The position numbers were made by a program, and so were the translations under genes. From positions 1 through 24,514 of the forward strand of contig JBKBOT010000021.1 of NCBI GenBank assembly GCA_046293555.1: DNA of 24,514 nt, given 5' to 3'. The DNA comes from Pyrobaculum sp. Its GTDB lineage: Archaea > Thermoproteota > Thermoprotei > Thermoproteales > Thermoproteaceae. A model generated the notes under the pieces. It saw nothing but the letters and a program-made list of their open reading frames with translations, ran no database searches and was not told the DNA's origin. Below, piece after piece: positions 249 to 24,514 of the stretch; within the stretch, counting starts at the first letter, position 1; the number at the start of each line of letters is the position of its first letter.

Positions 249-262
249 TTTATATACGTCAC
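249..262 (-). promoter_or_regulatory. Conserved BRE-TATA-like promoter motif GTGACGTATATAAA
   Basis: One of 12 copies; start codon at 229 (33 nt away). Confidence 0.75.
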
Positions 263-297: not shown

Positions 298-459
298 ATG
301 TCTGTAGAATGTCTCAAGAGGTGTAGGGAGGGCTGTCTGGACAGCTGCTATCTTGAGTGTAGCGGCATGTGGTCCGAAGTGGATTTGGAGGGCTGTCTGG
401 AGAGCTGTGGCGTGGGCTGTGTGGAGCGGTGTGAGAAGTGGTGTGGTGGAGGACCATGA
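298..459 (+). CDS. 53-aa Cys-rich peptide, (CX3)4C-X11-(CX3)4C
   Basis: ATG 298 lies about 28 nt after TTTAAA (270). Ten Cys at regular i+4 spacing. The stop overlaps the PCNA start (ATGA at 456-459). Confidence 0.7.
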   Translation: MSVECLKRCREGCLDSCYLECSGMWSEVDLEGCLESCGVGCVERCEKWCGGGP

Positions 460-1196
460 GGCTTGTCTACCCCTCCGCGAAGGAATTCGCCTACATTGTA
501 GACGCAGTCGCCGCGTTGGTGGACGAGGCCGAGTTTGTGGTCAGGCGGGACGGTCTGTACCTAAGGATGTTGGACATGTCCAGGACGGCCATGGTGGACC
601 TCGCCATCCCCAGGGAGGCCTTCGAGGAGTTTCCGGATGTGGAGGAGCTCAGGGTTGGCCTCAACCTCAAGGACCTGATGAAGATCCTCCGCCGCATCAA
701 GAAGGGCGATAAGATCGCCATTGAGCCGGGGGAGGGGAGGGTCAGGGTGAAGCTGGTGGGCAAGTCCACGCGTTCCGTGGCCCTCCGCCCGGTGGAGCTC
801 ATACCGGAGGAGATGCCTAGGCCCAAGTTCACCGTGGCGGCCACGTTGAGAGTTACATCCGCCGTGTTGTTAACCATGTTGAGAGACGTGGCTGTGGTAG
901 GCGACGAGGTGAGGTTCGAGGCCAGCATCGACGCCTTTGTGGCAAAGGGCGTAAGCGATAGGGGCGAGGTCGAGGTGAGGCTTGAGAGGGGGAGCGAGTT
1001 TGTATATGGATATGAGGTTAGGGAGCCCGCCTCTGCAAAATACTCCCTGGACTACTTGTTGAAGATGGCGCAGAGGGGGGCCAAGATCTCCGACGTGGCC
1101 ACACTGGAGTTCGCCACGGCGAGGCCCGTGGCGTTGACCTTCGACCTGCCGTCAGGCGTGGCGTTGACCTACTTCCTGGCGCCGCGTGTGGAATGA
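456..1196 (+). CDS. pcn: DNA polymerase sliding clamp (PCNA)
   Basis: 246 aa. PCNA motifs LVDEA-F, MLDMSRTAMVDL-IP-EAF, G(L)NL-DL-KIL-R, GDEV-F, A-YSLDYL and C-terminal YFLAPRVE. GGAGG RBS before ATG 456. Confidence 0.95.
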   Translation: MRLVYPSAKEFAYIVDAVAALVDEAEFVVRRDGLYLRMLDMSRTAMVDLAIPREAFEEFPDVEELRVGLNLKDLMKILRRIKKGDKIAIEPGEGRVRVKLVGKSTRSVALRPVELIPEEMPRPKFTVAATLRVTSAVLLTMLRDVAVVGDEVRFEASIDAFVAKGVSDRGEVEVRLERGSEFVYGYEVREPASAKYSLDYLLKMAQRGAKISDVATLEFATARPVALTFDLPSGVALTYFLAPRVE

Positions 1197-1225: not shown

Positions 1226-1239
1226 ATAACGTATTTTTA
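1226..1239 (+). promoter_or_regulatory. Conserved promoter motif ATAACGTATTTTTA
   Basis: ATG at 1259 (33 nt away). Confidence 0.6.
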
Positions 1240-2601: not shown

Positions 2602-2615
2602 TATATATACGTTAC
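2602..2615 (-). promoter_or_regulatory. Conserved promoter motif GTAACGTATATATA
   Basis: Start codon at 2582 (33 nt away). Confidence 0.75.
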
Positions 2616-3402: not shown

Positions 3403-3604
3403 CCCAACACGCTTAGGAGGACTCCAACCGAAAACACAAAGATGCCATATTGTGAAAAGTATCTGTAGTCAACGTGGTATGCAAATGGGGCGTTTAACGC
3501 AGATGCGACTTGGTTATGTACCTCAACCAGCTTTGCCTCAAAGAAATACATGAGTATCAACGCTATGGCGAACATGGCTATCAACAGGAGCGCAAATACG
3601 ATGC

Positions 3605-3608
<4 letters not shown>
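3375..3608 (-). CDS. Small two-TM membrane protein
   Basis: ATGA-coupled to the upstream gene; two hydrophobic helices. Confidence 0.65.
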
Positions 3609-4203
<595 letters not shown>

Positions 4204-4571: not shown

Positions 4572-4585
4572 TATAAATACGTTAA
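4572..4585 (-). promoter_or_regulatory. Conserved promoter motif TTAACGTATTTATA
   Basis: ATG at 4551 (34 nt away). Confidence 0.65.
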
Positions 4586-4886: not shown

Positions 4887-5032
4887 GTGTAAAAGAAATT
4901 AATAAAAATTTAAAAAACCACCCCATCACACGTGAGCCAAAACACAACTCTAAAACAAACAGATATATCACAGACCTGACGGTTTTTATTGGCTATAACT
5001 CGGTCGTTTGTCTCGTGGACACGGCGTGTATG

Positions 5033-5644: not shown

Positions 5645-5658
5645 TTTATATACGTCAC
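5645..5658 (-). promoter_or_regulatory. Conserved promoter motif GTGACGTATATAAA
   Basis: ATG at 5625 (33 nt away); 5641-5658 is identical over 18 bp to 245-262. Confidence 0.75.
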
Positions 5659-8325: not shown

Positions 8326-8717
8326 ACCCCGATCTCCTTGTAGATCCTGCCCTTCGCCGCAGCCTTCACAATGGCGCCGTATGCCACAACCGCCTTAAAC
8401 ACAGCGTCTATCTCAGGGTCCATATGGGTTTGTATCTCGAAGATCTCCCCAGCCTTCATCCCCACGAACCTAGACACGTCGAGCCCAACCACGTTGAAGG
8501 CCTCCAGAAATGGGAGCAACATGTATTTATCGACAGTTATATTTAAGTCGGCCAGGAGGGAGGCCAACATCTGCAGCTGCTGCGACCTGGCGATACGTAA
8601 CATCCGCGGAAGCTTCATGTCGTAGAGAACGCTCTTGAACAACGCCCCGGCCTCCTCAAACAGCTTGAGGCGGAGGTCCACTGGAGGCGTTGCAGATGGC
8701 AGCCTCTCAGCCGTCAT
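8322..8717 (-). CDS. Hypothetical helical protein
   Basis: ATG 8717 overlaps the stop of the AAA gene (ATGA); also coupled to the downstream ATPase. Confidence 0.7.
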   Translation of the reverse strand: MTAERLPSATPPVDLRLKLFEEAGALFKSVLYDMKLPRMLRIARSQQLQMLASLLADLNITVDKYMLLPFLEAFNVVGLDVSRFVGMKAGEIFEIQTHMDPEIDAVFKAVVAYGAIVKAAAKGRIYKEIGV

Positions 8718-9868
8718 GGACATCTCCTCCAAAACGCGATCTTTATGTCCTCAGTGTTGGCGCAAGGTCTAAGCATTTTCACCAACTTCACAAGCTGCTG
8801 GTCCCTATCGTACCTGATCTTCACTACAGGCAATTTCTCCGAGCCGTGGTGTGGGATGATCAAAAGCCCCCTCGCCAGCGGCTTGGCGTGTTTCACATAG
8901 CTCTGTCCAACCCTGTCGTCCACAACCCCCACCGCGCCGCTGTCCTCAAGGGCGTTGATCACAAACTTCGGATCTCTATCGCCGTAGATGTACCAAACCT
9001 GTCTAGACCCGCCGAAATAGCCCCACGCGACAAGCAACGCGTGGATTGGAGAGACAGCCGCGGTATATACGCCAACCTCCTCGCTCACGGAGACGCCCAC
9101 AGGCTGTGCGGTATATGGAGGCAAAACCTCGTAGTCCACGTCTGTGTACACACCAGCGCCCTTCTTCAGCTCGGCCATGGTCTTTGCGCCGGCCTTAAAC
9201 TCAAGCCCAGTAAGCTCGGCATATATCTTCAACATCTTCTGAGTGGGCAGAGGTATGCGCAACGCCTTAAACCTCCCGCTGGCGACAGCCGCCTGGTCTA
9301 CAAGCTCCGTGGGGACGTTCGTCGTGAGGACCACAACCCCCCTGTGGTTATCCTCAATATGTTCATGCGCCTTGGCCAACATGGCTGACACTATGGAGTT
9401 GTTCTTAAAGCTAAAGCCCCTTCTGGCCACAAGAACCTCCCCCTCGTCGAAAACCAAAACGCCGTTTGTAGACCTAACCCAGGAGAAGTACTTAGCCACC
9501 CTCTTCTCCGTATCGCCAAGCCATTTTATCAAGACAAGGTCAGGCGTGATTACTTTCACCTCCCTCCCCCACTTCTTTGCGAAATACTTCGGCGCATAGG
9601 ACTTGCCAGTCCGCGGGGGGCCAGTTAGGAGGAAAAGGCTGCCCACCTCCCAGTTGGAAAACGCCTTGTCCAACTCCGTGAAGACCTCCCTATATTGTAC
9701 ATATACATCGCCTGTGGATAACTTCTCGGCAATAAACTCATCGCTCTCAACCCGCCTTTCTACTTTAGGCACGTATGAATACTTCGTATATCTCTCCTCG
9801 ATGCATTTCGGCGGGTCTGTATAAATTATCTCAGAATCTCTCTTTATCATGCGGATGCAGGGATACAC
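8714..9868 (-). CDS. AAA+ ATPase, classical (Cdc48/Vps4/PAN-like) clade
   Basis: Walker A LLTGPPRTGKS, pore loop IKWLGDTE, Walker B VLVFDEGE, SRH TTNVP--VDQA---SGRF. Confidence 0.85.
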   Translation of the reverse strand: MYPCIRMIKRDSEIIYTDPPKCIEERYTKYSYVPKVERRVESDEFIAEKLSTGDVYVQYREVFTELDKAFSNWEVGSLFLLTGPPRTGKSYAPKYFAKKWGREVKVITPDLVLIKWLGDTEKRVAKYFSWVRSTNGVLVFDEGEVLVARRGFSFKNNSIVSAMLAKAHEHIEDNHRGVVVLTTNVPTELVDQAAVASGRFKALRIPLPTQKMLKIYAELTGLEFKAGAKTMAELKKGAGVYTDVDYEVLPPYTAQPVGVSVSEEVGVYTAAVSPIHALLVAWGYFGGSRQVWYIYGDRDPKFVINALEDSGAVGVVDDRVGQSYVKHAKPLARGLLIIPHHGSEKLPVVKIRYDRDQQLVKLVKMLRPCANTEDIKIAFWRRCP

Positions 9869-11955: not shown

Positions 11956-11969
11956 TATATATACGTCAC
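11956..11969 (-). promoter_or_regulatory. Conserved promoter motif GTGACGTATATATA
   Basis: ATG at 11936; the TGA within the motif is also the stop codon of the upstream gene. Confidence 0.75.
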
Positions 11970-13090: not shown

Positions 13091-13104
13091 TATAAATACG
13101 TCAC
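13091..13104 (-). promoter_or_regulatory. Conserved promoter motif GTGACGTATTTATA
   Basis: ATG at 13071 (33 nt away). Confidence 0.75.
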
Positions 13105-14109: not shown

Positions 14110-14123
14110 TATAAATACGTCAT
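14110..14123 (-). promoter_or_regulatory. Conserved promoter motif ATGACGTATTTATA
   Basis: ATG at 14090 (33 nt away). Confidence 0.75.
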
Positions 14124-14137
14124 TTTTTACGATTACA

Positions 14138-14686
14138 TTACTGTCGTCTTTTACGCCTTTTACGCATTAAGTCATACGCCTCTTTTGACCCTCCAGCTCC
14201 AAGTACTTTCATATCTTTTGCAGCTCTCTTGACGGCACGTGTGTATTCCTCTAATGACAATTCGTCTTGCTGCCTCTCGTCAGTGAACGGATAAATTGAA
14301 TACAAATATACTTTCCATCTGCCAAAAGCCGTAACGACTATAGACGAACTGTTTGGATCTCGTAACGGTATGGTGATAGTTATGTTTGCTAACTGCCATC
14401 CCCCCTCTGTGAACAAGTTGTATGTTAATATGTACGTTTCTGTCTCAACGTTAATAACAGGCACTGCGTAGATAAACACTTTCGGCAAGCCGTAAGTACG
14501 GACGACGTCCATCACGACGTTGTTTGACGCCTCTATGATCCCTTTAGTGAGGCCATCTAACGCGGCCAACCCCTCTCTAGAGGTGCCGCCCACCTCAGTT
14601 GTTATTGTCTTATATCTCTCTAAATACGGCCTTACCGCTTTGGCGATATTTTCGGCCAACGTTTTCGCCAACTCTTTGGGATACAT
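14138..14686 (-). CDS. Arg-tail paralog family protein (tail RKRRKRRQ)
   Basis: MYPKELAKTLAE...YGLP...YSIYPFTDE. Confidence 0.85.
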   Translation of the reverse strand: MYPKELAKTLAENIAKAVRPYLERYKTITTEVGGTSREGLAALDGLTKGIIEASNNVVMDVVRTYGLPKVFIYAVPVINVETETYILTYNLFTEGGWQLANITITIPLRDPNSSSIVVTAFGRWKVYLYSIYPFTDERQQDELSLEEYTRAVKRAAKDMKVLGAGGSKEAYDLMRKRRKRRQ

Positions 14687-14705: not shown

Positions 14706-14719
14706 TATAAATACGTCAT
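14706..14719 (-). promoter_or_regulatory. Conserved promoter motif ATGACGTATTTATA
   Basis: ATG at 14686 (33 nt away). Confidence 0.75.
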
Positions 14720-14902: not shown

Positions 14903-15388
14903 TCACACCGCCACCCTCTTACGCTGACGTGTTTGATTTACAGCTGTCTGTGTTGTTAACTCTACCTTCTCGCTCTCCTCGCCTGTGGCCAGGTTTAGCC
15001 TGTATACATAACGCTTATCGCGATGTCTTATGTAGACGGTCATATACGACATCTCCGGCCGATGTGCGTATAAGTCAAGACGTAACTCAAACCACCCATC
15101 GCCCCCCTCCAGTGGATACCCCTCTATTGGATACGCCACAAACCTCCCGCTGAGCTTCAACTGCCCCTCGTCGAGACTTATGTGCTCTACATAATACCCC
15201 CGCGTGTAAATCCTCGTGAAGGCGGCCAAAACCTCCACAATCTCCCTCCACCAGTCGTCAACCTCCTCCCTCATGGTCTTGAGGCTGGGCTCCTCCCTAA
15301 TGGACTTCAAAATCCCCGCCAAAGCCCGTCTCGCGTATGAATCCCTCAAGACAAACGTCGCCGTCCGCCTCGCCCACTCCACGTCCAT
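14903..15388 (-). CDS. Hypothetical protein with basic tail (RQRKRVAV), probably a distant array member
   Basis: Helical N-half and beta-rich C-half with YVYRLNLATGE; ATG is 33 nt from the motif. Confidence 0.8.
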   Translation of the reverse strand: MDVEWARRTATFVLRDSYARRALAGILKSIREEPSLKTMREEVDDWWREIVEVLAAFTRIYTRGYYVEHISLDEGQLKLSGRFVAYPIEGYPLEGGDGWFELRLDLYAHRPEMSYMTVYIRHRDKRYVYRLNLATGEESEKVELTTQTAVNQTRQRKRVAV

Positions 15389-15407
15389 ACCCCCACCTGC
15401 CCATCCC

Positions 15408-15421
15408 TATTTATACGTCAC
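15408..15421 (-). promoter_or_regulatory. Conserved promoter motif GTGACGTATAAATA
   Basis: ATG at 15388 (33 nt away). Confidence 0.75.
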
Positions 15422-15571
15422 TACGACAAAAACACACCATCGACACGCACATCGCCGTTGTTTGAATTTATTGAAATTTTTCAACAAAATGGCTGCAACA
15501 ACGCCGCCGCGCGTGTTCTGTCTGTTGTCCTTATATTGTTGCACATGTGTGGACACATGTCATGTATCTCC

Positions 15572-15886
15572 ATGGCGGGGAGATACCAGACGTTTCTCTC
15601 CGCAGCACGTTGGCGCGTGTCATTTGTGTATAGAGACGTCGAGGAGAAATACTTGAGGGCCAAGAGGCTCGCCAAGGCGTATTGGGGCTTGGTGCACGTG
15701 TTGAAGTACGACACCTGCAGCGGCGTGTTAGTCATGCCGCTCGACAACGGTTTTGAGATAGAGATCGGCGATGTGGTTAGGGTGAGGTTTGGAGACGTGG
15801 TGGTGGAGCTCCCAGACGAGAGGCTGTTGATAAGGATGAAGATCTGTGTGGGGGAGGTATGTCTACAGTCGAGGGCGCGGAGTTGA
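15572..15886 (+). CDS. Hypothetical protein
   Basis: Codon usage is protein-like from ATG 15572 onward; the start is uncertain. Confidence 0.6.
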   Translation: MAGRYQTFLSAARWRVSFVYRDVEEKYLRAKRLAKAYWGLVHVLKYDTCSGVLVMPLDNGFEIEIGDVVRVRFGDVVVELPDERLLIRMKICVGEVCLQSRARS

Positions 15887-16000
15887 TGGACAGACCGGCG
15901 CTGGGCCCGTAGCTGTTGACGTTAAAAGCATAAGCCATCGAGGCGAAGCTGTTGAAAAAGGCGATCTGTAGATGATTTATATAGCCCCCCGATGTGAGAT

Positions 16001-16666
16001 GTGAGCAAGAGGGTGACGCTTGAGTTTAAAGACGGCAATATAACACGCATATATACAATGGACGTACGCCTAGCTGAGTTGATAAAAAACGTTGGAAGCA
16101 AGATAGTGGAGATGCTACGCACCGAGCTGAAAGACACGTTGTTGCTTAGGTGTGTCGGTAGGGAGTGGTTCTGCGACGGCGTGACCGGCGTGTCTATAAA
16201 TACACGCATGAGAGAGCCCGCGCCTGTGGTTAACGAATATCTTTTCTCCATCACTCCCAAATCACACCTCTACCTCAGAATTATCGAATTTATTTACTCT
16301 GCAATTTTACATGTTGGCAGGCTGAGGGGCATGCCGTTGACATATAACAACATACTCGAGGTGATGTATCACATCATGCAACGGGACCCTGAACGCGCCG
16401 CCAGATACATAACGTACTTCGGCCTGGCCTTTTCCAAATCCGCAAGGGAGTTCGGAAGGGAGCTTGAGACAGCTAGGAGGTACCTCGAGGAGTTTCTAAA
16501 GGAGGCTGCAGCCGTATTTCCACACAAGCGGGAAAAAATAGAGCAATACATACAGACGGTCCAAAGCGGCATGCCGCTGACGCGGGCAGAGGCGACGTTC
16601 AGACGACGCGAGGCACAGCCGGAGGCGGCGGCTGCGAGGCGGCGGAGGCGGCGCACAGGCATATAG
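16001..16666 (+). CDS. Hypothetical protein with tail AAARRRRRRTGI; paralog of 17188..17760
   Basis: TTTATATA box 25 nt upstream; shares PLTY--I/M-EV--HI--R-P--AA and FLK-A----P-K---I--Y with 17188. Confidence 0.8.
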   Translation: MSKRVTLEFKDGNITRIYTMDVRLAELIKNVGSKIVEMLRTELKDTLLLRCVGREWFCDGVTGVSINTRMREPAPVVNEYLFSITPKSHLYLRIIEFIYSAILHVGRLRGMPLTYNNILEVMYHIMQRDPERAARYITYFGLAFSKSAREFGRELETARRYLEEFLKEAAAVFPHKREKIEQYIQTVQSGMPLTRAEATFRRREAQPEAAAARRRRRRTGI

Positions 16667-16668
16667 TT

Positions 16669-17184
16669 ATGTACAACGACCTTGCGGCATGGACGCTAGC
16701 TACACTCCTGGCCCTGGCAGGTTGGCGTGATGTAAAACACAGAGAGATAGAGGTATGGATCTTCGCCGCAATGGCGCCGCCAGCAGCATATCTCGTTTTG
16801 GCCAGTTGGCAAGACCCCGTATATCAACTCCAGTTCATGTTAGGCGCCGTATATGCCTTGGCGCTGGTATACATCCGCGCAGGCGCTGGCGACATCTTGG
16901 CGGCGCTGGCCGCAGCGGCGGCCGGGGCAACTCTTACCGTGTTTCTCCTTACGGCAACACTCATAGCGTTAACGCCACTGTGGCTGTACGCGTTAAACAC
17001 CAGGAGGCCTTGCCCCATGTCAAGGCGAGAGAGGGCCACGTATATATGCATACGCCGCGGGGAGTTTGGAAAATACGGCGTCGAGGCTGAGGGGGAGTGG
17101 GCAAAGGCGAGGTACGGCCCGCCGTATGTGGCATGGATCGCCGCTGCCGTTTGCGTGACGTATATATATCACTGTTGTGTGTGA
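16669..17184 (+). CDS. Prepilin peptidase, family A24 (GxGD intramembrane aspartic protease, PibD/FlaK-like)
   Basis: WRDVKHREI (first Asp), GAGD (second Asp), C-terminal PY--I motif and multiple TM helices. Confidence 0.8.
   Translation: MYNDLAAWTLATLLALAGWRDVKHREIEVWIFAAMAPPAAYLVLASWQDPVYQLQFMLGAVYALALVYIRAGAGDILAALAAAAAGATLTVFLLTATLIALTPLWLYALNTRRPCPMSRRERATYICIRRGEFGKYGVEAEGEWAKARYGPPYVAWIAAAVCVTYIYHCCV
17155..17168 (+). promoter_or_regulatory. Conserved promoter motif GTGACGTATATATA
   Basis: ATG at 17188 (33 nt away); embedded in the 3' end of the peptidase gene. Confidence 0.75.
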
Positions 17185-17187
17185 CAT

Positions 17188-17760
17188 ATGGCGCTTAGAC
17201 GTAGAGCTGCGAACGTCGTTAGAGTCAGCTGGGGAGTCCACCCACTTGCACACGACATATGGAAACACATCGGCGGATATGTGAAGGACGTGTTGAGAAA
17301 GGGGCTGAGAGACGCTGCGTTCAACTTGTGCTACGGCGCGTTGACGCATACAATGGGGTGTCCAGACGGCAGCGGTCTGTACGTATACCGCGAGGACGAG
17401 GCACCGATTGGCAACAAGGAGCATCTGTTTAACGAAGGCGGCTGGCGTTTTTACATATACGGCCCACTCTTTGTGACATATGCCGTCAGCCAGTTTGTGG
17501 ACAGAGAAAAAGTGCCGTTGACATACGACGAGGCGATGGAGGTGGTCAGACACATCGCCGAGAGGAGTCCAAAGCTCGCCGCCACCCTGGTGGCACACCT
17601 TGCGTTCCCGCCGAGGAGCGACGAAGACCACATGTACGTCTACGACTTCCTAAAGGCGGCGAAAAAGATCATGCCCTACAAGGAGGGGGAGATAAACGAT
17701 TATGTGTTCTGGAGGCTACAGTCAAAACCGTTCCGCGGCAGGGGAACGTTCACGTTTTAA
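17188..17760 (+). CDS. Hypothetical protein, paralog of 16001..16666
   Basis: Shares motifs with 16001; basic N-terminus MALRRR. Confidence 0.8.
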   Translation: MALRRRAANVVRVSWGVHPLAHDIWKHIGGYVKDVLRKGLRDAAFNLCYGALTHTMGCPDGSGLYVYREDEAPIGNKEHLFNEGGWRFYIYGPLFVTYAVSQFVDREKVPLTYDEAMEVVRHIAERSPKLAATLVAHLAFPPRSDEDHMYVYDFLKAAKKIMPYKEGEINDYVFWRLQSKPFRGRGTFTF

Positions 17761-18491
17761 AACATGTAGTCTAACATAGCGTCTATACATCTCACGTCGA
17801 CAGACTCTTTTTTCACAAGCCTTGCCGTTAGCCTTAACGCCTCGTGGTATGCATGACTACTCCCAGACGTCAGATATGCGGCAAGACTTGACAGAACGTC
17901 TGGCTCTGTGTGAAACAACGTGGCGACACATCTGTTCCAACTGCCGCGACCGAGTCTTTCAACCATATCGAGGACAAAGCCTGAAAGCTTGGAGACATCC
18001 AAGAGGACTGTGCGTTCCACATCTACATATGGCTCTACTCGTTTTACAACATACGCGATTACCTCGTTGAGGTATATGCCAGATGTCGTGATGAAATACA
18101 CTGCGGCCGATAAGTGATCTACGCCGCTCGCGACAACCACGTTCGGCATACGTCTATACATTTTCTTCATATCGCTAATTGACATCTTGTCGTCAGGTAT
18201 TGGTATTAAGTATACCGACATATCCCCATAAAACTTAGCAACGCCGTGTTTATACCCAATGGACGCAAACGCCATATGTTTCGCGTCTAACTTCTCGTTT
18301 CTCAACATGGTGAAAAACACAACGTCTACGTCAGATGCGTCGGACTTAAGTTCAGGCAATCTGTCAACCCCCTCTAAAACATAACCATTCCCCCTCCTCA
18401 TAACTCCCCCCTCACCATCTAACGTATACACAACGCCGTGGAGCACTAGGGTGTTTACCATTAGGTTATCAGTAGGCTTTACTTCCAACAT
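17757..18491 (-). CDS. Hypothetical protein, possibly a shortened Cas8a2/Csa4-like (type I-A large subunit) homolog
   Basis: The CDS is solid (TATA upstream). N-terminal NTLVLHGVV--L...RRGNGY and C-terminal YLTSG----Y-EALR--AR resemble Cas8a2 by eye only. Confidence 0.45.
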   Translation of the reverse strand: MLEVKPTDNLMVNTLVLHGVVYTLDGEGGVMRRGNGYVLEGVDRLPELKSDASDVDVVFFTMLRNEKLDAKHMAFASIGYKHGVAKFYGDMSVYLIPIPDDKMSISDMKKMYRRMPNVVVASGVDHLSAAVYFITTSGIYLNEVIAYVVKRVEPYVDVERTVLLDVSKLSGFVLDMVERLGRGSWNRCVATLFHTEPDVLSSLAAYLTSGSSHAYHEALRLTARLVKKESVDVRCIDAMLDYMF

Positions 18492-18550
18492 ATCGTAAAG
18501 GACATATAGCTATATAAATTCAACATTTAATACAACATATAACGCCGTTT

Positions 18551-19483
18551 GTGTCTGTTTGCATAATCGCTTTAGGCACGCCGCTGGACGCCAAGCCGAG
18601 GCCATGGCTGTATTTTGAAGTGCCCGTTTTGCTCATAAACGCATTAGAAGTAAAGGACAACCCCCGCTCTGTATTACAACATGACGGTAAGCTTTGGATA
18701 GACTCCGGCGGCTATCAGATAATGAGGAAGGGAATTACAATAGACGTTTACGACGTAATTAAAATATACGAGAGGGTAAACGCCGATCTCTACTTCTCTT
18801 TAGACGTGCCTCCCACTCCACAAGACCCGCTTGAATTAGCAAGAAAGAAGTTCGAAAAGTCTTATCAAAACTGGCTAAAACTGTCGAAAAGGATAGAGGT
18901 AGTGCCGGTGTTACATGTGTATAAAGACGCAAAGCTGTTTTTAGAGTATTTAGAGAAATACGAAAACGTCCCCGCTCTTGCTATTGGTGGCGCTGTGCCG
19001 TATGTCCTCACCACACGGGGCGCTTCTAGACAGTTTGCGTTTAGTTTGATCGCAGCCGCCAGGAGGCGGTTTAAAGGTAAGCTACACGTCTTCGGCCTCG
19101 GCAGCCCGGCCATTACGCCCATATTAAGGGCATTGGGCATAGACAGTACCGACACGGCCACATGGCGCCTTAAGGCGGCATATGGAAAAGTGCTTCTTCC
19201 AGGCGGCGGGGAGAGACATGTAACTAAGAGGGAGGTGAAGTTTGGAAAAAAGAAGCCCAAAGACGGCGAACTTGAAGAGCTATACCACTTCCTAAGAGAG
19301 ACGGGATTCCCCCTGGCGGACGCCTTTTTTGAAAGGCTAAACCGCTTTGAATATAGAGCGTTGGTAAACGCGTGGGTTGTGTTGAGACCAGAAAGACCAC
19401 CAAGACCTACCGAATTCAGAAAGCTATATAACACACTCACCAACGGGTTAGAGAAGTTCATAATCAAGGCAGAAAGAGTATAG
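18551..19483 (+). CDS. Guanine transglycosylase (TGT/DpdA-like) family protein
   Basis: WIDSGGYQ, LDVPP, VPVLH, LAIGG, LHVFGLG and GIDSTD-ATW motifs; no CxCxxC zinc site and no PUA extension. Confidence 0.85.
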   Translation: MSVCIIALGTPLDAKPRPWLYFEVPVLLINALEVKDNPRSVLQHDGKLWIDSGGYQIMRKGITIDVYDVIKIYERVNADLYFSLDVPPTPQDPLELARKKFEKSYQNWLKLSKRIEVVPVLHVYKDAKLFLEYLEKYENVPALAIGGAVPYVLTTRGASRQFAFSLIAAARRRFKGKLHVFGLGSPAITPILRALGIDSTDTATWRLKAAYGKVLLPGGGERHVTKREVKFGKKKPKDGELEELYHFLRETGFPLADAFFERLNRFEYRALVNAWVVLRPERPPRPTEFRKLYNTLTNGLEKFIIKAERV

Positions 19484-19620
19484 GCCGGACTGACGGGGAT
19501 AGCCCCCACTACCACTACCCATTCCACCACTCATTACCCCCATATATGTCATTAGACAAGTCGAATGTTTTTTCGCCTTTTCATTGTTACCTACGGCGAG
19601 ATACGCCGTAGTTTTTATTT

Positions 19621-19762
19621 TCTAAACATTCGCGGCATATGTCCAAAGATTTCCAAACATTCACATTTTATTTCCAAAGATTTCCAAAAATTCACACATT
19701 TCCAAACATTTGTGGTTTTGGTCCAAAGATTTCCAAAGATTTGTGCCGTGGCTCCAAAGATT
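19621..19762. repeat. Array of nine 10-bp direct repeats TCCAAA(G/C)ATT (iteron-like)
   Basis: Copies start at 19621, 19642, 19652, 19673, 19683, 19701, 19722, 19732 and 19753, in an AT-rich gap between convergent genes. Confidence 0.85.
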
Positions 19763-19814
19763 CTCTAGAGAATAAGAGAACCGGCCCCCGATAGGATGCG
19801 TGTAGAAAGTCAGC

Positions 19815-20282
19815 CTAGCCTTGCTTCAAGGCCTCGGCCAGCTGGGGGTATTGCGAAATCTTGTCCATTGGGGCTATGTGGCAATACTTCCCATCGCTGT
19901 GCCAGACGTAGACGTATTGTTGTTTATAGTCAGTTCTGACGCCAAGCCGCCCGGGCCGGCCACATTTTGGACATGTGACAAGCGGTCGCCTTGGGTGTGG
20001 GCCGGGCCTCAGCCTTATCCCAGCCTGCCGCAGGTTGTTCTGTATGATGTAAACCGAGACCCCGAGCTCCCTTGCGATTTCCCACAGCCTTAGCCCTTTT
20101 TCGTATAGCTCCAACACCTTGTTGATATCTACAGACCTCCAACGTCTTGTAGACACGCCATATTGCTTGAGATACTTAGAGACTGTGGCTGGATTGTAGC
20201 CAAAAATGCGCGCGATCTTGTTGATAGACATTCCGCTGTCGTAAAGCTTGGCCATCTCCTTTATCCTCTCCTCGAATTTCAT
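19815..20282 (-). CDS. DNA-binding protein with two tandem HTH motifs and a C-terminal zinc finger
   Basis: GMSINKIARIFG---ATVSKYL and GLRLWEIARELGVS---I---L; CPKC...H...CH. Confidence 0.85.
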   Translation of the reverse strand: MKFEERIKEMAKLYDSGMSINKIARIFGYNPATVSKYLKQYGVSTRRWRSVDINKVLELYEKGLRLWEIARELGVSVYIIQNNLRQAGIRLRPGPHPRRPLVTCPKCGRPGRLGVRTDYKQQYVYVWHSDGKYCHIAPMDKISQYPQLAEALKQG

Positions 20283-20371
20283 GTAATGATGTAAATTCCT
20301 AGATATAAATACATTTCACACTTTTTCGCGTTACCTCAACGAAGGGCCCCAGCCTTCACATGGACACGATG

Positions 20372-20385
20372 GTAACGTATATATA
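20372..20385 (+). promoter_or_regulatory. Conserved promoter motif GTAACGTATATATA
   Basis: ATG at 20405 (33 nt away). Confidence 0.75.
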
Positions 20386-20404
20386 CTGGTTTATACATAG
20401 GCCC

Positions 20405-20527
20405 ATGTCAAGTCGAAAGCGTGTACGTAAAAAACACAAGAAGGCGGCAGCTGAGCTGCCGTTTTTAACCCACAGGAGAAAGAGGAGGACTGCGGGCGGC
20501 TGCCGGCGGAGGAGAGTAGCTCGCTGA
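20405..20527 (+). CDS. 40-aa protamine-like basic peptide (MSSRKRVRKKHKKAAAELPFLTHRRKRRTAGGCRRRRVAR), not in ORF track
   Basis: Translated by hand; 18 of 40 residues are R/K; motif promoter at the exact spacing. Confidence 0.7.
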   Translation: MSSRKRVRKKHKKAAAELPFLTHRRKRRTAGGCRRRRVAR

Positions 20528-20569
20528 ATTTATCCGTATGTTTTAAATAAACTACATCTTTTTCCACAC

Positions 20570-21019
20570 ATGGAGAGGCTGATGCGTCTAGTATCGCCAC
20601 ATATCGCCATATTGCTACAAGAGGAGGTCGCGCCGAGGCTGAGGACAGAGGTGGACAAACTGTGGGGCGATCTGACGGCTACACTCGGCCGTGTGGCCGC
20701 AATGAGGTGTCTTGTCTACGCCGTGAGGGTGGGGCCGTTGGAGCTGTCTGTTGAATACACAGACGGCCGCCTCAAGGCACACGGTGAGCTGACCTTCGGC
20801 CAGCTGGTGGAGGCCGCGTGGAGAAACAGCGGCGTGGCGGATCTAGACAGCTATGTGGACTACATCACGAAGATTGCAGAGATCGGGCCTAGGTATGCCG
20901 CAAGACGGATACTATGGCAGGCGGGGCTGCCGGTGGCCTTCACGCCGAAGCCCGTGGAGAGGGAACAGTGGGACGATTTGTTGCAGCCTACAGACAAATT
21001 CGTGGTGACGATCCTATAG
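20570..21019 (+). CDS. Hypothetical protein, possibly a distant relative of 16001/17188
   Basis: TTTTAAATA box upstream and T-rich tract after the stop; IAEIGPRYAA resembles IAERSPKLAA. Confidence 0.75.
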   Translation: MERLMRLVSPHIAILLQEEVAPRLRTEVDKLWGDLTATLGRVAAMRCLVYAVRVGPLELSVEYTDGRLKAHGELTFGQLVEAAWRNSGVADLDSYVDYITKIAEIGPRYAARRILWQAGLPVAFTPKPVEREQWDDLLQPTDKFVVTIL

Positions 21020-21228
21020 CTTATTTTTTAGTTGCTTATTTACGCCGTATCCCCAATCGGGGACTTTCCCCTCTCCCACTCCATCCGTCACGAGGGCCCT
21101 TGTGAGCCGCGGCAGCCGCAAGCCCCCCAGCCCTCGGGGCATGACCCCTCACAAGGCTGGAGGCGCATTCCGGTTCCTACGCCTTATTTTCTCCACAGCA
21201 TTTTTAAATCGACGTATTTTACGCCTCT

Positions 21229-22080
21229 ATGGACAGATGTCCAGCCTGCGGCGGCGGCAGTTTTGTCTACAGCTACGACAGGGGCGAGGTCGTGTGTGAC
21301 CAATGTGGCACAGTGGTACAACAGCTTGTGGACACCGGCCCGGAGTGGAGGAGGGCGGAGCGCGCCAGGGTCGGACCCCCCATGTCGCCGACTGTTACAC
21401 CATTGTTACTCACCTCGATCGACAGGAGGAAAGACACAAAAGGTAGGGAGTTGGGGTTGAGGGTTGGCGCAATGCGGCTAAGGGACTACCAGATGCGGTT
21501 TGGGGTAAGCACCGCGCTTGAGCGTAAATATCTAGACGCGGTCAAGGAGGCCGCCAGAATTGCAAGCGTTATGGGCATACCGAAGCCATGTGTAGACACT
21601 GCGCTCTCCATTATACGCAAGGCCGTTGGACACATCCGAGGCAGGCCGCTTGACGCCTTGGCGGCGGCTGCGCTCTACGCCGCATGTAGGCTTACAAACA
21701 CGCCGAGACAAATCGAGGAGTTTGCGAAATACACAAAGGCGTCAAGGAGACATATCACAAAGAGCTACATGTCGATAGTCGAGACGCTTGGGGTAAAGCC
21801 CCCGCTGCCCCACCCAGCTGTGTACATCCCCAAGATCGCCTCGGCGCTGAGGCTGAGAGATGGCATAGTCAAAATGGCGATAGATATAGCCAAGAGGGCG
21901 AGGGAGGCCAGGTTGACCAGAGGCAAGACCCCCGCCTCCATAGCCGCCGCAGCTGTATACATCGCCATGATGAAACACGGCGTGAGGACAACCATAGAAG
22001 ACGTGGCCAAGGCCGCCAACGTCTCCCCCCCGGCGGTAAAACAGAGGTACGTGGAGATATCCACAAAGCTAAAGATATAG
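21229..22080 (+). CDS. tfb: Transcription initiation factor B (TFB) paralog
   Basis: Zn ribbon CPAC...CDQC, B-reader DTGPEWR, two cyclin repeats (GR----LAAAALYAACR; GKTP-SIAAAAVYIA). Confidence 0.95.
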   Translation: MDRCPACGGGSFVYSYDRGEVVCDQCGTVVQQLVDTGPEWRRAERARVGPPMSPTVTPLLLTSIDRRKDTKGRELGLRVGAMRLRDYQMRFGVSTALERKYLDAVKEAARIASVMGIPKPCVDTALSIIRKAVGHIRGRPLDALAAAALYAACRLTNTPRQIEEFAKYTKASRRHITKSYMSIVETLGVKPPLPHPAVYIPKIASALRLRDGIVKMAIDIAKRAREARLTRGKTPASIAAAAVYIAMMKHGVRTTIEDVAKAANVSPPAVKQRYVEISTKLKI

Positions 22081-22124
22081 AGTTTTTTCTCTAGCCTTTT
22101 TATTTTTGCGATATTTATGTCTTC

Positions 22125-22658
22125 ATGATTCTGGCAAACGACGAGCTCAAAAAGCTGATCTCCCAAGGCAGGCTGGTGGTGACGCCGCTTAGGCCGGACA
22201 CAGTGAGAGAAAACGGCCTCGACCTTAGGGTGGGCGGGGAGTATGCAATATATGCGTACGAAAACGCCGTGGTGAGACCCTGCGAGCTGGAGGAGGCGAG
22301 GCACCTATTCCGCGTGGTGAAGGCAGAGGAGGTGGTGATACCGCCTAGGAATTTCGTCCTGCTGACAACAGAGGAGTACATAAAGATGCCGGAAGACGTC
22401 GCCGGCTTCGCCAACTTGCGTTCTACCTTGGCCAGGTACGGCCTTGTAATCCCACCCACAGTGGTGGACGCCGGCTTTGAGGGCAATATAACAATCGAGG
22501 TGGTAAACGCCTCGCCAAACACCATAGTGCTGAGAAGGGGCATGCGGTTTCTCCACCTGGTGTTGGCAAAAACAGCCGGCAGGGCGGCCTACGCCGGGGC
22601 GTACCAGGGACAGAGGGGGGTGACGCCACCAAAAGGGCTCAAGGGGGAGTGTACATGA
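22125..22658 (+). CDS. dcd: dCTP deaminase
   Basis: ENGLDLR, LLTTEEYIKMP, NLRSTLARYGL, VDAGFEGNITIE and YQGQRGVT motifs. Confidence 0.95.
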   Translation: MILANDELKKLISQGRLVVTPLRPDTVRENGLDLRVGGEYAIYAYENAVVRPCELEEARHLFRVVKAEEVVIPPRNFVLLTTEEYIKMPEDVAGFANLRSTLARYGLVIPPTVVDAGFEGNITIEVVNASPNTIVLRRGMRFLHLVLAKTAGRAAYAGAYQGQRGVTPPKGLKGECT

Positions 22659-22841
22659 ATGGGCTTTGGTATAAATAACCACATGAGACCTAATGCCTGT
22701 CATTTGGTTATGGCGTGGATCACATCGCTTATCTTTCTACCTGCAATATCGACAATCAACACTGTTGAGAGAGGTATAACTGTTGGCGCAAGTCTACTGG
22801 CGCTAGGTGTGATATCTTATCTCTACTGTAAGTATGGATAA
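22659..22841 (+). CDS. Small two-TM membrane peptide (start may be 22683 or 22710)
   Basis: Fills the gap between dcd and the methyltransferase; two hydrophobic stretches. Confidence 0.45.
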   Translation: MGFGINNHMRPNACHLVMAWITSLIFLPAISTINTVERGITVGASLLALGVISYLYCKYG

Positions 22842-24514
22842 CACAATACGTGACAGACCTGCCGAGGTTAGGCACCCGCTGGGGCAGTTCTACACGCCGC
22901 CTTGGGTTTGTGAGTTTATCGTGAGGTGGGCCGTAAGGAGTGGTGACGATGTGGTGTTTGACCCAGGCACTGGCGATGGTTGTTTCATAACCGCCGCATA
23001 TCGCCGTCTGTTGGAGTTTGGCAAGAGTCATGAGGAGGCGATAAGGCAACTCTATGCCGTGGATGTAGACCACGCGGCGGTCGAGGCGGTTGTGGACGCA
23101 CTTTCGGCCAGGGGGCTTCAACATAATATATTCCATGCCGACTTTTTCTCCATCCCTCCGCCAGGGGGCATTGTGTCCGTTGTGCCCAAGGTGGATGCAG
23201 TAGTGGGAAACCCACCATACACCAGATGGACAGAAATACCGGAAAAAACCCGCCAGCTGATAAAACAACAGCTAAAAGACGTCATGAAGAAATACCGCCT
23301 TACGCCACAAGCGAGCAGAAGAGCAGAGCCCGGGATATACGTCTATTGGACTATGCACTCCGCTAGCTTCTTAAAAGAGGGGGGGAGGCTAGGGATGATA
23401 ATTTCAAACACCTGGCTTCAGACAGACTATGGCATTAAGTTTGCAAACTTCCTCCTCGACCACTACAGGATAAAGGCTGTGATCGATTTTTCGGCCAGGC
23501 TTTTCAAAGACGCACTAATAACCACATGCATAATACTGGCAGAGAGAGAAAGCAATGAGGAAAAGAGAAAGGAAAACATCACGGCGTTTATACACATCCC
23601 CGGAGAGGTGGAGACAGTAGACATAGACGAGTTGCTAAAAGCGATAGAAACGGGCCAGTCTGAAAAATACCGCATGAGGCTTGTGAGACAGGGAGACATA
23701 CCACGGGACAAGAAGTGGATAAATCTGTTTTTCGAGACCGCCAATGTTTACAGCCACCCGCTAATGGTCAAACTTGGCGAGCTATTTGAGGTGTCGAGAG
23801 GAAACACCTTCTGGAGCAGATGGGCTTTATCTCATGGAAAAAGGCCAGACCCCGGTGCCAGTGAGTTCCACTACCTCACCCCCTCTGAGGTAAAGGGATA
23901 TAAGCTGGGGAACTGGGCTTACCCTAACGCGCCTCCAAATGAGTTGATATACCCCGCAGTCATCAGCGCCAAACAAGTGCAGTACTTCGTCTTTACAGAA
24001 GCGGACTGGAATGCGCTATATAGGTCAGACGAGGAATGTTACATGTTTATAGGCCACATGCCACGGGACCAGCTCCCAAAAGAAGTGGAAGACTACGTCA
24101 AGAAAGGTGAGACACAAATCTTCACAAAAACCAAGGCGAAACAGCTAGGCGGCAGGGGGAAAAAGGCAAACGAGACAGAGGCGGCGAAAGCCAGGGCTAG
24201 AGAGAGAAAATACTTCTACGGCTGGTATGACCTGGGGGGCGTGGTCTATACGCCAATCTTTGCGACTCGTTACGGAAGATACAAGACTAGGTTTATATAC
24301 GATAGGTTCCCCGTCGCGCTATCTGATAACCTCATAGCGTTAATACCACGCCAGGAGCTAGACGAGCTTCGAATCAAGGCCCTTTTGGCATATCTAAACT
24401 CGAGCTTTGTCCAACACTACATCGAGACAAGCGGCGGGGTGGTCTCCAGCGGCCCCATAGATCTTACGGTAAATACTGCTAGGAAGATGCCTATCCTCGA
24501 CGTGAGGAGGCTAG
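22834..24514 (+). CDS. N6-adenine DNA methyltransferase (Eco57I/TaqI-like, gamma class), 3' end outside the window
   Basis: Translated by hand from ATG 22834 and open to the window edge: GQFYTPP, VFDPGTGDGCF (motif I), VVGNPPY (motif IV), LKEGGRLGMI and TRD-like LLAYLNSS. Confidence 0.92.
   Translation, partial: MDNTIRDRPAEVRHPLGQFYTPPWVCEFIVRWAVRSGDDVVFDPGTGDGCFITAAYRRLLEFGKSHEEAIRQLYAVDVDHAAVEAVVDALSARGLQHNIFHADFFSIPPPGGIVSVVPKVDAVVGNPPYTRWTEIPEKTRQLIKQQLKDVMKKYRLTPQASRRAEPGIYVYWTMHSASFLKEGGRLGMIISNTWLQTDYGIKFANFLLDHYRIKAVIDFSARLFKDALITTCIILAERESNEEKRKENITAFIHIPGEVETVDIDELLKAIETGQSEKYRMRLVRQGDIPRDKKWINLFFETANVYSHPLMVKLGELFEVSRGNTFWSRWALSHGKRPDPGASEFHYLTPSEVKGYKLGNWAYPNAPPNELIYPAVISAKQVQYFVFTEADWNALYRSDEECYMFIGHMPRDQLPKEVEDYVKKGETQIFTKTKAKQLGGRGKKANETEAAKARARERKYFYGWYDLGGVVYTPIFATRYGRYKTRFIYDRFPVALSDNLIALIPRQELDELRIKALLAYLNSSFVQHYIETSGGVVSSGPIDLTVNTARKMPILDVRRL

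Follow-up and report, generated by a model that had tools for sequence, protein, structure and literature searches.

Archaeal viruses are not known to encode an RNA polymerase, and how they divert that of the host is for the most part poorly understood. In bacteria, alternative sigma factors of bacteriophages, such as gp55 of T4 and gp28 of SPO1, are the products of early genes that are transcribed with the host's own factor, and as replacement promoter-recognition subunits they then redirect the host RNA polymerase to phage promoters that differ in sequence. TFB genes are already known from archaeal viruses and other mobile genetic elements (MGEs), namely the Italian rudiviruses MRV1, ARV3 and SSRV1, the Sulfolobales viruses YNP1 and YNP2, tailed viruses of Halorubrum, JinchiV1, PBV300, and thaumarchaeal ICEs. 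The choice of promoters by an alternative TFB has also been described. Haloarchaeal TFBb/TFB2 selects a promoter subset (the hsp5 promoter) via the core promoter, according to the accessible text of PMC2396416, and the accessible part of bioRxiv 10.64898/2026.09.06.749720 presents Sulfolobus TFB2 as directing division genes, with BREs that appeared similar to those of TFB1 and a different spacing.

The locus described here offers a testable pair, consisting of a TFB altered on its DNA-reading helix and 24 near-identical promoters with a BRE sequence that is rare in the host. It lies in a window of 24,514 nucleotides, the whole stretch of DNA that was analysed, which represents contig C21 of a Pyrobaculum bin. 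A single unitig runs across the tfb gene in the contigs of the probable source metagenome. The gene and the parts of its product are as follows.

21229..22080, plus strand: tfb, encoding the element TFB (P0001, 283 aa, ATG start), from ORF calling
Layout of the element TFB, from sequence and model: Zn ribbon, aa 3-42; shortened B-reader, aa 38-51; cyclin repeats, about aa 93-187 and aa 192-278
21994..22071, plus strand: helix-turn-helix (HTH) at the C terminus, aa 256-281, from the homologue alignment and the AlphaFold2 model

The general architecture of the protein is well preserved. Pfam places a TFIIB Zn ribbon (PF08271) at residues 3-42 (E 6.9e-12) and the TFIIB repeat (PF00382) in two stretches (E 1.6e-30), while all the Zn ligands (Cys4, 7, 23 and 26) are retained in a region modelled with three strands. 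The AlphaFold2 model has a mean pLDDT of 88, with ten helices above 95 in the cyclin repeats, and its core superposes on P. woesei TFBc (1d3u_B) with an rmsd of 1.6 A over 192 columns and a TM-score of 0.88 (target-normalised). The Pfam matches, the four cysteines and the model agree with the first-pass annotation on an intact Zn ribbon and two intact cyclin folds. Its claim of an equally intact B-reader fails. This part is six residues short, with a spacing of 5 within the EWR...R.G.P pattern versus 11 in 197 of 212 homologues, counting only those in which the pattern was found; the element TFB is alone among the 212 in having a spacing of 5, and its residues 35-48 are modelled with a pLDDT below 50. 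Such a shortened B-reader could impair initiation. The EWR motif, R47, G49, P51 and G138/R139 are retained, and in the homologue alignment 53 of the 72 columns conserved at 80% or more are kept and 19 deviate. Judged from motifs and model, the element TFB keeps the predicted requirements for joining host TBP and RNA polymerase in a pre-initiation complex, namely the four-Cys Zn ribbon, EWR, R.G.P, both cyclin folds and a folded HTH.

Further changes concern the terminal HTH, which reads T255-IEDVAKAANVSPPAVKQRY-274. In the model, its two helices span residues 256-263 and 267-281, and the recognition helix begins at P267 (base 22027). Six positions are replaced, giving I256, P267, P268, A269, K271 and Q272 (Q>I, E>P, V>P, T>A, R>K and N>Q). 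The usual residues are near-invariant in the 268 nearest TFB homologues (Q in 259/268, E in 233/268, V in 249/268, T in 260/268, R in 262/268 and N in 226/268), and among the full-length sequences of this set only the element TFB has all six replaced. The host TFB1 HTH reads RTQK..A.AA.VTEVTVRNRYKEL in 29/29 orthologues taken from related genomes. Both the sequence quoted in the first-pass annotation and the substitutions claimed there (Q>I, TEVT>SPPA, RN>KQ) are borne out.

Changes affect 8 of 13 conserved HTH columns versus 11 of 59 elsewhere in the protein (Fisher p 0.0035). In the alignment with human TFIIB, V283 corresponds to P268 and R286 to K271 of the element TFB. We take V283 and R286 to be BRE-reading residues of human TFIIB; likewise, the Gln, Val and Arg of the archaeal TFB HTH are presumably the BRE contacts in the Pyrococcus TBP-TFB-DNA structure. 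On these alignments, the substitutions are concentrated on the predicted DNA-reading helix and less on the parts facing RNA polymerase or TBP. A second MGE-borne TFB of the bin, on contig C35, has a similar S-P-x-x-[VI]-K helix start; no shared motif at the BRE position was found among the 20 ORFs of that contig.

The phylogenetic check proposed with the original observation was run, and it placed the element TFB within a clade holding Thermoproteales TFB1 sequences (support 92/90) on a very long branch, with 2.8 changes per column versus at most 0.4 for the host TFB1 orthologues of related genomes. By this tree, the protein is a strongly diverged descendant of the Thermoproteales TFB1 lineage. 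Its closest match in 40 related genomes is 49% identical, host TFB1 being 46-49% identical, and none of these genomes holds an orthologue. The element TFB is a singleton in protein collections (5.8 billion clusters; 1.84 billion representatives), and no relative more than 44% identical occurs among the 1.84 billion cluster representatives. Relatives that could reveal covariation between helix and motif were found neither in IMG/VR nor in the 40 related genomes or the protein clusters.

The gene resides on DNA that differs from the host chromosome in several respects. Four protospacers of CRISPR arrays of the same bin lie on C21, bracketing tfb at 3592-4966 and 22743-23002. These protospacers (unstranded, from spacer matches) and the recognisable genes are listed below.

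3592..3626: protospacer, spacer on contig C126 (34/35)
4926..4966: protospacer, spacer on contig C117 (40/41)
22743..22788: protospacer, matching a C22-array spacer at 43/46 and the C66 variant at 45/46
22966..23002: protospacer inside the methylase gene, spacer on C71 (35/37)
438..1196, plus strand: PCNA homologue, 61.5% identical to the C16 copy (homology search)
8714..9868, minus strand: AAA ATPase; about 55% of its length aligns, at about 26% identity, with the conserved AAA ATPase found in large spindle viruses (ATSV, SMV1-3, YNP1/2)
19815..20282, minus strand: protein of 155 aa that contains a pair of HTH_7-like motifs and, in addition, a Zn domain resembling PSV ORF131 (Pfam)
22125..22658, plus strand: dCTP deaminase (dcd), an extra copy with a host-type promoter (Pfam, synteny)
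22834..24513, plus strand: N6 DNA methylase, Eco57I-like, truncated by the contig end (Pfam)

A TGT-like gene is also carried by the C21 element. In tetranucleotide composition, C21 is an outlier ranked third among contigs of at least 15 kb, and the contigs closest to it are other spacer-targeted ones. The possibility that tfb is a core host gene standing beside dcd was considered and rejected. In relatives, dcd has other flanking genes, and the conserved host synteny belongs to the copy on C38, which shares 95% amino acid and 91% nucleotide identity with the C21 copy. The claim that the TFB is element-encoded and not a syntenic core tfb is upheld by the lack of an orthologue in all 40 relatives, the singleton status of the protein, the protospacers, the outlying composition and the extra dcd copy. 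Taken together, the sequence data support the view that tfb is carried by a CRISPR-targeted mobile element in the Pyrobaculum population.

A viral nature of this element is only suggested. For the description of the element as a virus there are weak matches (25-28% identity) to large spindle-shaped viruses, one from the AAA ATPase and one from a VWA protein, and the PSV ORF131-like domain, which scores under its cut-off; no capsid gene, integrase gene or tRNA was found. Searches of 50 ORFs of C21 and of a second contig, C25, against Pfam and PHROGs mostly gave no match; in the Atlas search, a 905-aa C25 protein returned VWA only, and a 180-aa paralogue gave nothing usable. IMG/VR held no relative of the element TFB, the AAA ATPase or the 905-aa protein, and the search for the AAA ATPase in relatives returned generic host AAA domains only. 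C21 and C25 share a gene at only 58% amino acid identity (ORF 14903-15388 and its C25 homologue). No end overlaps between contigs were found. The two contigs most likely represent one element or closely related ones. Even if no specificity switch exists, a virus-like Pyrobaculum element with PCNA, dcd, a TGT-like gene, a methylase and a TFB is documented.

The second half of the proposed pair is a stereotyped promoter class. Twelve promoters in the window follow the pattern (G)T[GA]ACG + TAT[AT]TATA, usually 32 nt ahead of a start codon. The 12 TRACG promoters reported in the first-pass annotation are thus recovered, as 12 matches to T[AG]ACGTA+W5, and C25 holds 12 more sites of the class. Those in the window are the following candidate element promoters.

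249..261, minus strand: TGACGTATATAAA, its gene leaving the contig at the left end
1227..1239, plus strand: TAACGTATTTTTA, ATG at +32 (ORF 1259-1606)
2602..2614, minus strand: TAACGTATATATA
4572..4584, minus strand: TAACGTATTTATA, ATG at +33
5645..5657, minus strand: TGACGTATATAAA, ATG at +32
11956..11968, minus strand: TGACGTATATATA, ATG at +32
13091..13103, minus strand: TGACGTATTTATA, ATG at +32 (ORF 12529-13071)
14110..14122, minus strand: TGACGTATTTATA, ATG at +32
14706..14718, minus strand: TGACGTATTTATA, ATG at +32 (ORF 14138-14686)
15408..15420, minus strand: TGACGTATAAATA, ATG at +32 (ORF 14903-15388, the gene shared with C25)
17156..17168, plus strand: TGACGTATATATA, ATG at +32 (ORF 17188-17760)
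20373..20385, plus strand: TAACGTATATATA, ATG at +32 (40-aa ORF 20405-20527)

At 18 of the 24 sites on C21 and C25, the start codon lies exactly at +32, and at 5 more it lies at 30-36. Since the flanks beyond the motif carry less than 0.5 bit per position as far as the start-codon region, the 24 sites are not recent duplicates. Genome-wide, the exact motif has 23 copies, 17 of them on C21 and C25, and each of the 40 relatives has 0-5. T[AG]ACG stands ahead of TAT[AT]TATA in 17/46 cases on C21 and C25, in 3/593 on host contigs and in 3/56 on other MGE contigs; at -32 it is present in 12/36 element ORFs versus 5/918 host ORFs (p 6e-15). The enrichment belongs to the composite of TRACG and TATA only, TRACG by itself giving 99 matches in the window versus 92.8 expected. 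The near-confinement of the motif to C21 and C25 stands beside the finding that 0/40 relatives have the element TFB. A 161-aa protein of the candidate late class likewise occurs in 0/40 relatives.

Within the class, positions -5, -2 and -1 always read T, C and G, respectively, and the host consensus shows no preference there, while a purine at -6 is present in 23/24 sites and A at -3 in 24/24. With a length of 5-6 bp, the motif has no palindromic symmetry and adjoins the TATA box. In sequence terms, this geometry is that of a BRE read by a single HTH.

The tfb gene itself belongs to another class, as its upstream region indicates.

21197..21209, plus strand: tfb promoter of the host type, AGCAT + TTTTAAAT, covering -32..-20 relative to the ATG and without TRACG
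21210..21221, plus strand: near-copy of the element motif, CGACGTATTTTA, between the tfb TATA box and the start codon

The sequence TTTTTAAAT occupies 21201-21209, and the bases at -32..-28 are AGCAT, in agreement with the claim that the tfb promoter lacks TRACG. Host-type promoters are also found at dcd, the TGT-like gene, the AAA ATPase and the 155-aa HTH protein. At the level of predicted promoters, the existence of two classes on the element, with tfb in the host-type one, is confirmed. The near-copy CGACGTATTTTA might possibly serve as an autoregulatory site of tfb.

These features can be combined into a model of gene expression. Host TFB1 with TBP would transcribe tfb and the other host-type genes of the element (dcd, the TGT-like gene, the AAA ATPase and the HTH protein). 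The new TFB, together with host TBP, would then prefer (G)T[GA]ACG abutting TAT[AT]TATA, 32 nt ahead of leaderless starts, at ORFan genes and at large coiled-coil/VWA genes. In effect, a second temporal gene class would arise, as it does with a phage-encoded sigma factor in bacteria. Binding of the element TFB to the motif, its preference for this motif over host BREs and its role as a temporal switch are inferred. The genome has only one TBP gene, and therefore any special factor would be the TFB. That a TFB/BRE specificity switch has taken place, with an accessory TFB of the mobile element preferring the element promoters, is a serious but tentative proposal. The fuller version is put forward with somewhat greater reserve: an orthogonal TFB/BRE pair, in which a captured TFB1 with a re-tooled BRE helix and a trimmed B-reader would be selective for (G)TGACG-TATATATA, act as an early-to-late switch and draw polymerase away from host genes. 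C25 has its 12 such promoters and no TFB gene on the contig.

The best-surviving alternative, although unlikely in our estimate, is that TGACG+TATATATA represents strong canonical promoters for host TFB1 and TBP, the extra invariant bases having some other use, for instance in DNA shape, as a repressor site or for the strength of the promoter. In that case the element TFB would have a different role, either as a competitor that withholds TBP or RNA polymerase from host promoters (host shut-off) or as a generic additional supply of initiation factor. The purine at -6 and the A at -3 are canonical TFB determinants according to the accessible text of PMC11065993, which cites Qureshi & Jackson 1998; because both are kept, host TFB1 may read the element promoters well. 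The invariant T, C and G, at positions for which the host has no preference, are not accounted for in this way. A few motif copies also stand before host genes of relatives without the element TFB, with an ORF at +33 or +34 (for example an orthologous pair in two species, L080 and L083, and L084), but the motif is almost confined to contigs linked with the element TFB. Stereotyped promoters without a viral TFB do exist in archaeal viruses, the early genes of SIRV2 being an example in the same accessible text (PMC11065993). As for competition, the six-residue B-reader deletion fits a factor that assembles on TBP or RNA polymerase and initiates poorly, and the review PMC9501531, in its accessible portion, treats the role of viral TFBs as not established. 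A clustering of changes on the DNA-reading helix, and not on the parts facing RNA polymerase or TBP, would be unexpected for a competitor or a generic copy.

It is improbable that another DNA-binding protein of the element, the double HTH_7 protein at 19815-20282, recognises TRACG as an activator or repressor, with the TFB unrelated to the motif. Its two HTH_7 motifs (E 1.2e-12) and PSV ORF131-like domain, the latter scoring under its cut-off, would suit a regulator, its gene lies 1 kb from tfb behind a host-type promoter, and small HTH or RHH proteins are common regulators of archaeal viruses in the accessible text of PMC5569661. However, homologues of this protein occur on at least eight other contigs of the bin (C54, C41, C52, C50, C70, C27, C19 and C95), none of which shows clustered motifs (a single exact copy is present on C19 and another on C50), and no homologue was found on C25 despite its 12 sites. 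A short non-palindromic motif fixed against a TATA box is more in keeping with a BRE than with the binding site of a regulator that has two HTHs or acts as a dimer. Functionless drift of a captured host tfb, with the helix changes as decay, fits the long terminal branch, the B-reader deletion and the singleton status but is very improbable given the intact 283-codon frame, which a TATA box of its own precedes at the usual distance, the 53/72 conserved columns kept (all Zn ligands included), the confident fold in AlphaFold2 and in the 1d3u_B superposition, and changes that are concentrated on one functional surface, not evenly spread, and are helix-compatible, with S-P-P-A at the helix N-terminus.

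The proposed specificity switch may finally be set against the systems already described. The first-pass annotation knew of no specificity-switched TFB/BRE pair in a crenarchaeal virus; literature searches, which returned no paper pairing a helix change in a viral TFB with a private promoter motif, are compatible with this, viral and MGE TFBs as such having been published. In other words, the new part is the paired signature of helix and promoters.

Host TFB1 of Pyrobaculum and other Thermoproteales, like P. woesei TFBc (1D3U/1AIS), has the same order of Zn ribbon, B-reader/linker, two cyclin repeats and HTH. Compared with it, the element TFB is about 50 residues shorter, with six HTH residues replaced and a B-reader shorter by six, and it is encoded on a CRISPR-targeted mobile element instead of the core genome. 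With the known virus and MGE TFBs it has in common that a basal initiation factor is carried by a mobile element without its own RNA polymerase. YNP1 and YNP2 share their type of AAA ATPase with C21, but their TFBs are only about 30% identical to the element TFB. Unlike the latter, the YNP2 TFB has retained Q, E and R within the HTH (NKTQKEIAETLNISELVLRMRY) and has no N-terminal Zn ribbon. YNP2 was dropped as a parallel case, as no stereotyped BRE was seen upstream of its 42 annotated genes over the 25 kb inspected.

Haloarchaeal TFBb/TFB2 and Sulfolobus TFB2 are encoded by chromosomal genes and resemble the proposed system in that a subset of genes is placed under an alternative TFB by way of the core promoter. 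In contrast to Sulfolobus TFB2, the present case combines an overtly rewritten helix with a candidate BRE of different sequence. If the switch is real, BRE reading could be re-specified by a few helix residues, and a natural orthogonal pair of promoter and factor for hyperthermophilic archaea would be at hand. The likeness to phage sigma factors lies in functional logic only, as these belong to another protein family and another domain of life, and the element TFB is known from sequence alone. Should the proposed switch hold true, the element TFB would be an archaeal equivalent of the phage sigma factor, and the sigma-factor logic of phage development would extend to the TBP/TFB system.

The tfb gene (21229-22080, + strand, ATG start) encodes a 283-residue protein, P0001, with two TFIIB repeats (Pfam, E 1.6e-30) and a TFIIB Zn ribbon (E 6.9e-12). 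Its closest solved structures are those of P. woesei TFBc in TBP/DNA complexes (1d3u_B and 1ais_B, E about 5e-30), to which it aligns without gaps through the C-terminal HTH. P0001 is predicted to be a folded TFB by an AlphaFold2 model, which used 60 homologues, has a mean pLDDT of 88 (>95 across both cyclin repeats), places helices at 256-263 and 267-281, and superposes its core on 1d3u_B with an rmsd of 1.6 A over 192 columns. The first-pass annotation described the Zn ribbon, B-reader and both cyclin folds as intact. This holds for the ribbon, whose four Zn ligands are kept, and for the cyclin folds, but not for the B-reader: the gap between EWR and R.G.P is 5 residues, versus 11 in 197 of 212 homologues, and the region is modelled at low confidence.

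The same annotation was right about substitutions in the terminal HTH, which reads RTT-I-EDVAKAANV-S-PPA-V-KQ-RY. In an alignment of 268 other TFBs from two large homologue searches, six positions of this segment are near-invariant (Q in 259, E in 233, V in 249, T in 260, R in 262 and N in 226), and P0001 is alone among full-length sequences in having changed all six; 202 homologues show no change there, and the next most deviant shows four. The pattern RTQK..A.AA.VTEVTVRNRYKEL is present in 29/29 TFB1 orthologues extracted from related genomes, as well as in the host TFB1. Among 72 columns conserved at >=80%, P0001 retains 53, including the Zn ligands, EWR, R47/G49/P51 and G138/R139. The 19 deviant columns comprise 8 of 13 within the HTH versus 11 of 59 outside it (Fisher p 0.0035), so that the divergence clusters on the DNA-reading surface. 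In the HMMER alignment to human TFIIB, the counterparts of P268 and K271 are V283 and R286, reportedly BRE-reading residues in the work of Lagrange in 1998 and of Tsai and Sigler in 2000.

The gene is not a syntenic core host tfb. The window is the complete contig C21 of a 145-contig bin, whose dcd is 84-87% identical to Pyrobaculum species and in which TFIIB repeats occur in five ORFs: on C5 (TFB1), C18 (TFB2-like), C21, C35 and, as a short ORF, C2. Across 40 related genomes all TFB matches to P0001 are at most 49% identical, and same-genus genomes hold only TFB1-type (48-49%) and TFB2-type (30-37%) genes. In large protein collections P0001 is a singleton, forming a one-member cluster from one contig among 5.8 billion clusters (best other match 41%) and representing itself among 1.84 billion representatives (best other 44%). 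A maximum-likelihood tree places it within the clade holding Thermoproteales TFB1 sequences (support 92/90), its exact place there being ambiguous, on a terminal branch of 2.8 changes per column versus <=0.4 for TFB1 orthologues of related genomes. The short ORF (C2:83324-83557, + strand, about 150 aa) has a Zn ribbon and one cyclin repeat and lies on a host-like contig that also carries a TBP gene.

Many promoters of the element form a distinct class. Twelve TRACG promoters had been proposed for the window; TRACG by itself is at chance level there (99 matches versus 92.8 expected), but the longer T[AG]ACGTA+W5 does occur at 12 sites, and at 12 more on contig C25. The exact composite T[AG]ACGTAT[AT]TATA has 23 copies in the 1.75-Mb bin (eight on C21, nine on C25, one each on C1, C2, C9, C19, C30 and C50), so that 17 lie in 2.6% of the sequence (chance about 1e-22). 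With sites selected on the TATA part alone, T[AG]ACG precedes TAT[AT]TATA at 17/46 sites on C21 and C25, 3/593 on host contigs and 3/56 on other MGE contigs. An ATG or GTG follows the motif T by exactly 32 nt in 18 of the 24 sites and by 30-36 nt in five more, with none in one; a purine directly precedes the motif in 23. Information content is low at the other positions as far as the start-codon region; the sites therefore did not arise by recent duplication. Among 918 host ORFs chosen for a W-rich box at -27..-20, a crude and self-selected set, the consensus has A at -31/-30 (0.51 and 0.54) and then TTTWWAAA, and T[AG]ACG stands at -32 in 5, versus 12 of 36 element ORFs (p 6e-15). Each of the 40 relatives has 0-2 exact copies, save one with 5.

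Genes behind the TGACG class are ORFans on C21 and large coiled-coil/VWA proteins on C25. The tfb promoter, as claimed earlier, lacks TRACG: it is of host type, AGCAT TTTTAAAT, with AGCAT preceding the TATA box. Host-type promoters also serve dcd, the TGT-like gene, the HTH protein, the AAA ATPase and a few more C21 genes. Between the tfb TATA box and ATG, CGACGTATTTTA at 21210-21221 is one base off the element motif; that P0001 acts through it on the tfb gene is pure speculation. Exact motifs also occupy apparently orthologous sites across Pyrobaculum species (genomes L072/L076, L075/L077/L079 and L081/L082), with no ORF at the usual distance; these may be promoters of non-coding RNAs.

The element motif is short, non-palindromic and fixed against the TATA box, a geometry that fits a BRE read by one HTH. 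The changes in P0001 fall on precisely this HTH, and the motif cluster and P0001 occur together in the bin and in 0/40 relatives. The simplest and most likely reading, plausible though short of probable, is a two-step programme. Host TFB1 and TBP, the latter encoded by one gene in the bin genome, would express tfb; P0001, with host TBP and RNA polymerase, would then favour the TGACG class.

Host TFB1 may instead read the TGACG promoters well. If the T following ACG is counted as the first base of the TATA box, the motif carries a purine at -6 and A at -3, and the preferred canonical TFB site has G at -6 and A at -3 according to a single passage of PMC11065993, citing Qureshi & Jackson 1998. 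In relatives without P0001 an ORF follows the motif at +33/+34 in a few cases, among them an orthologous pair in two species, and stereotyped promoters are described in archaeal viruses without their own TFB (PMC11065993, in part). C25 also lacks a TFB; its one gene in common with C21 is only 58% identical in amino acids, so the two contigs may be two separate, related elements. Finally, spacer-targeted C35 carries a second accessory TFB (about 5744-6562, + strand, about 272 aa), whose recognition helix starts T-S-P-S-S-I-K, similar to S-P-P-A-V-K in P0001 (S-P-x-x-I-K), yet no stereotyped private BRE was seen on that contig. The C35 gene has an internal partial spacer match (30/31 aligned bases of a 44-nt spacer). 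P0001 could also be a poor initiator owing to its B-reader deletion, which would fit a competitor role. The double-HTH protein (19815-20282, - strand) is a less likely regulator: members of its family lie on eight or more other contigs that have no motif cluster, and no homologue was found on C25.

The tfb gene lies on a CRISPR-targeted mobile element. CRISPR arrays on 17 bin contigs, of a single repeat type, hold 286 spacers, four of which match C21 on both sides of tfb:
3592-3626, protospacer
4926-4966, protospacer
22743-22788, protospacer
22966-23002, protospacer
C25 is matched by five or six spacers and C35 by four; C19, C30, C50, C52 and C66 are also matched. In tetranucleotide composition C25 is first and C21 third in distance from the bin mean (contigs >=15 kb), and they are mutual nearest neighbours among 35 contigs >=14 kb, followed by C19, C30 and C35. 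One unitig of the probable source metagenome (depth about 10) covers 15284-22241, which takes in tfb and dcd as far as nucleotide 117, past which the assembly graph splits among dcd variants. Most element ORFs are ORFans. Weak links point to large spindle-shaped viruses: the AAA ATPase shares about 26% identity with the conserved ATPase of ATSV, SMV1-3 and YNP1/2, a 905-aa protein on C25 matches the SMV1/2 VWA protein, and a PSV ORF131-like domain falls below its Pfam cut-off. A search of the element found no capsid, integrase or tRNA, and the evidence carries no further than 'virus-like mobile element'. Several related mobile elements are present in the bin. Contigs C19, C30, C50, C52, C41, C54 and C70, spacer-targeted or element-like, share with C21 the families of the double-HTH protein and of ORF 17188-17760.

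Directly downstream of tfb, dcd (22125-22658) is one of three bin copies, the others (C38:2814-3341 and C66:473-1000) being 93-95% identical to it in protein. Relatives' dcd gene order matches C38; the 91% DNA identity between C21 and C38 is confined to the gene, and six relatives' dcd neighbourhoods have no match to C21 apart from dcd. Besides element genes, an Eco57I-like methylase is linked to two of the copies. One spacer agrees with the C66 copy at 40/40 bases, so that CRISPR targeting falls on a mobile copy of a gene also present in the host (about 91% DNA identity).

A TGT (queuine tRNA-ribosyltransferase)-like gene (18551-19483, + strand; Pfam E 9e-6, just under cut-off) has two further bin copies, on C26 (76%) and C1 (73%); part of PMC13700489 reports genes of this kind from rudi- and ahmunviruses, and a role in modifying DNA or RNA is therefore possible. 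Between it and the double-HTH gene, four copies of a 49-nt repeat family rich in TCCAAAGATTTCCAAAC (19613-19772, spacing 31, 49 and 31 nt) could serve as iterons, as an origin or as a regulator array. A PCNA homologue (438-1196, + strand) is 61.5% identical to a C16 copy and 48% to one on C70, which also has double-HTH homologues. Paralogous genes of about 180 aa stand in tandem pairs at 10828-11945 and 13578-14686 (- strand), marked by direct-repeat families D5, D6, D10 and D14; each gene of the 13578-14686 pair has a TGACG promoter, and only the upstream gene of the other. A nearby 180-aa ORF (12529-13071), which may or may not belong to these paralogues, has a confident Atlas model (pTM 0.77) without a known-fold match.

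TFBs of viruses and mobile elements are already known as such. TFB genes of Sulfolobales viruses YNP1/YNP2 and Halorubrum tailed viruses are in databases or print, and the portions of the literature consulted place others in Italian rudiviruses (bioRxiv 10.1101/2020.01.16.907410), in JinchiV1, PBV300 and a subset of rudiviruses (PMC13700489) and in all thaumarchaeal ICEs (PMC6563490). No mobile-element TFB that pairs a rewritten recognition helix with an element-specific motif at the BRE position came up in a literature search, and part of a review (PMC9501531) states that viral TFB preference for viral promoters is not established. Promoter subsets are chosen by TFB paralogues in haloarchaea (PMC2396416, in part) and by one in Sulfolobus (bioRxiv 10.64898/2026.09.06.749720, in part). 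Beside these systems, P0001 and the TGACG promoters offer a testable candidate for a TFB that would prefer element-specific promoters.
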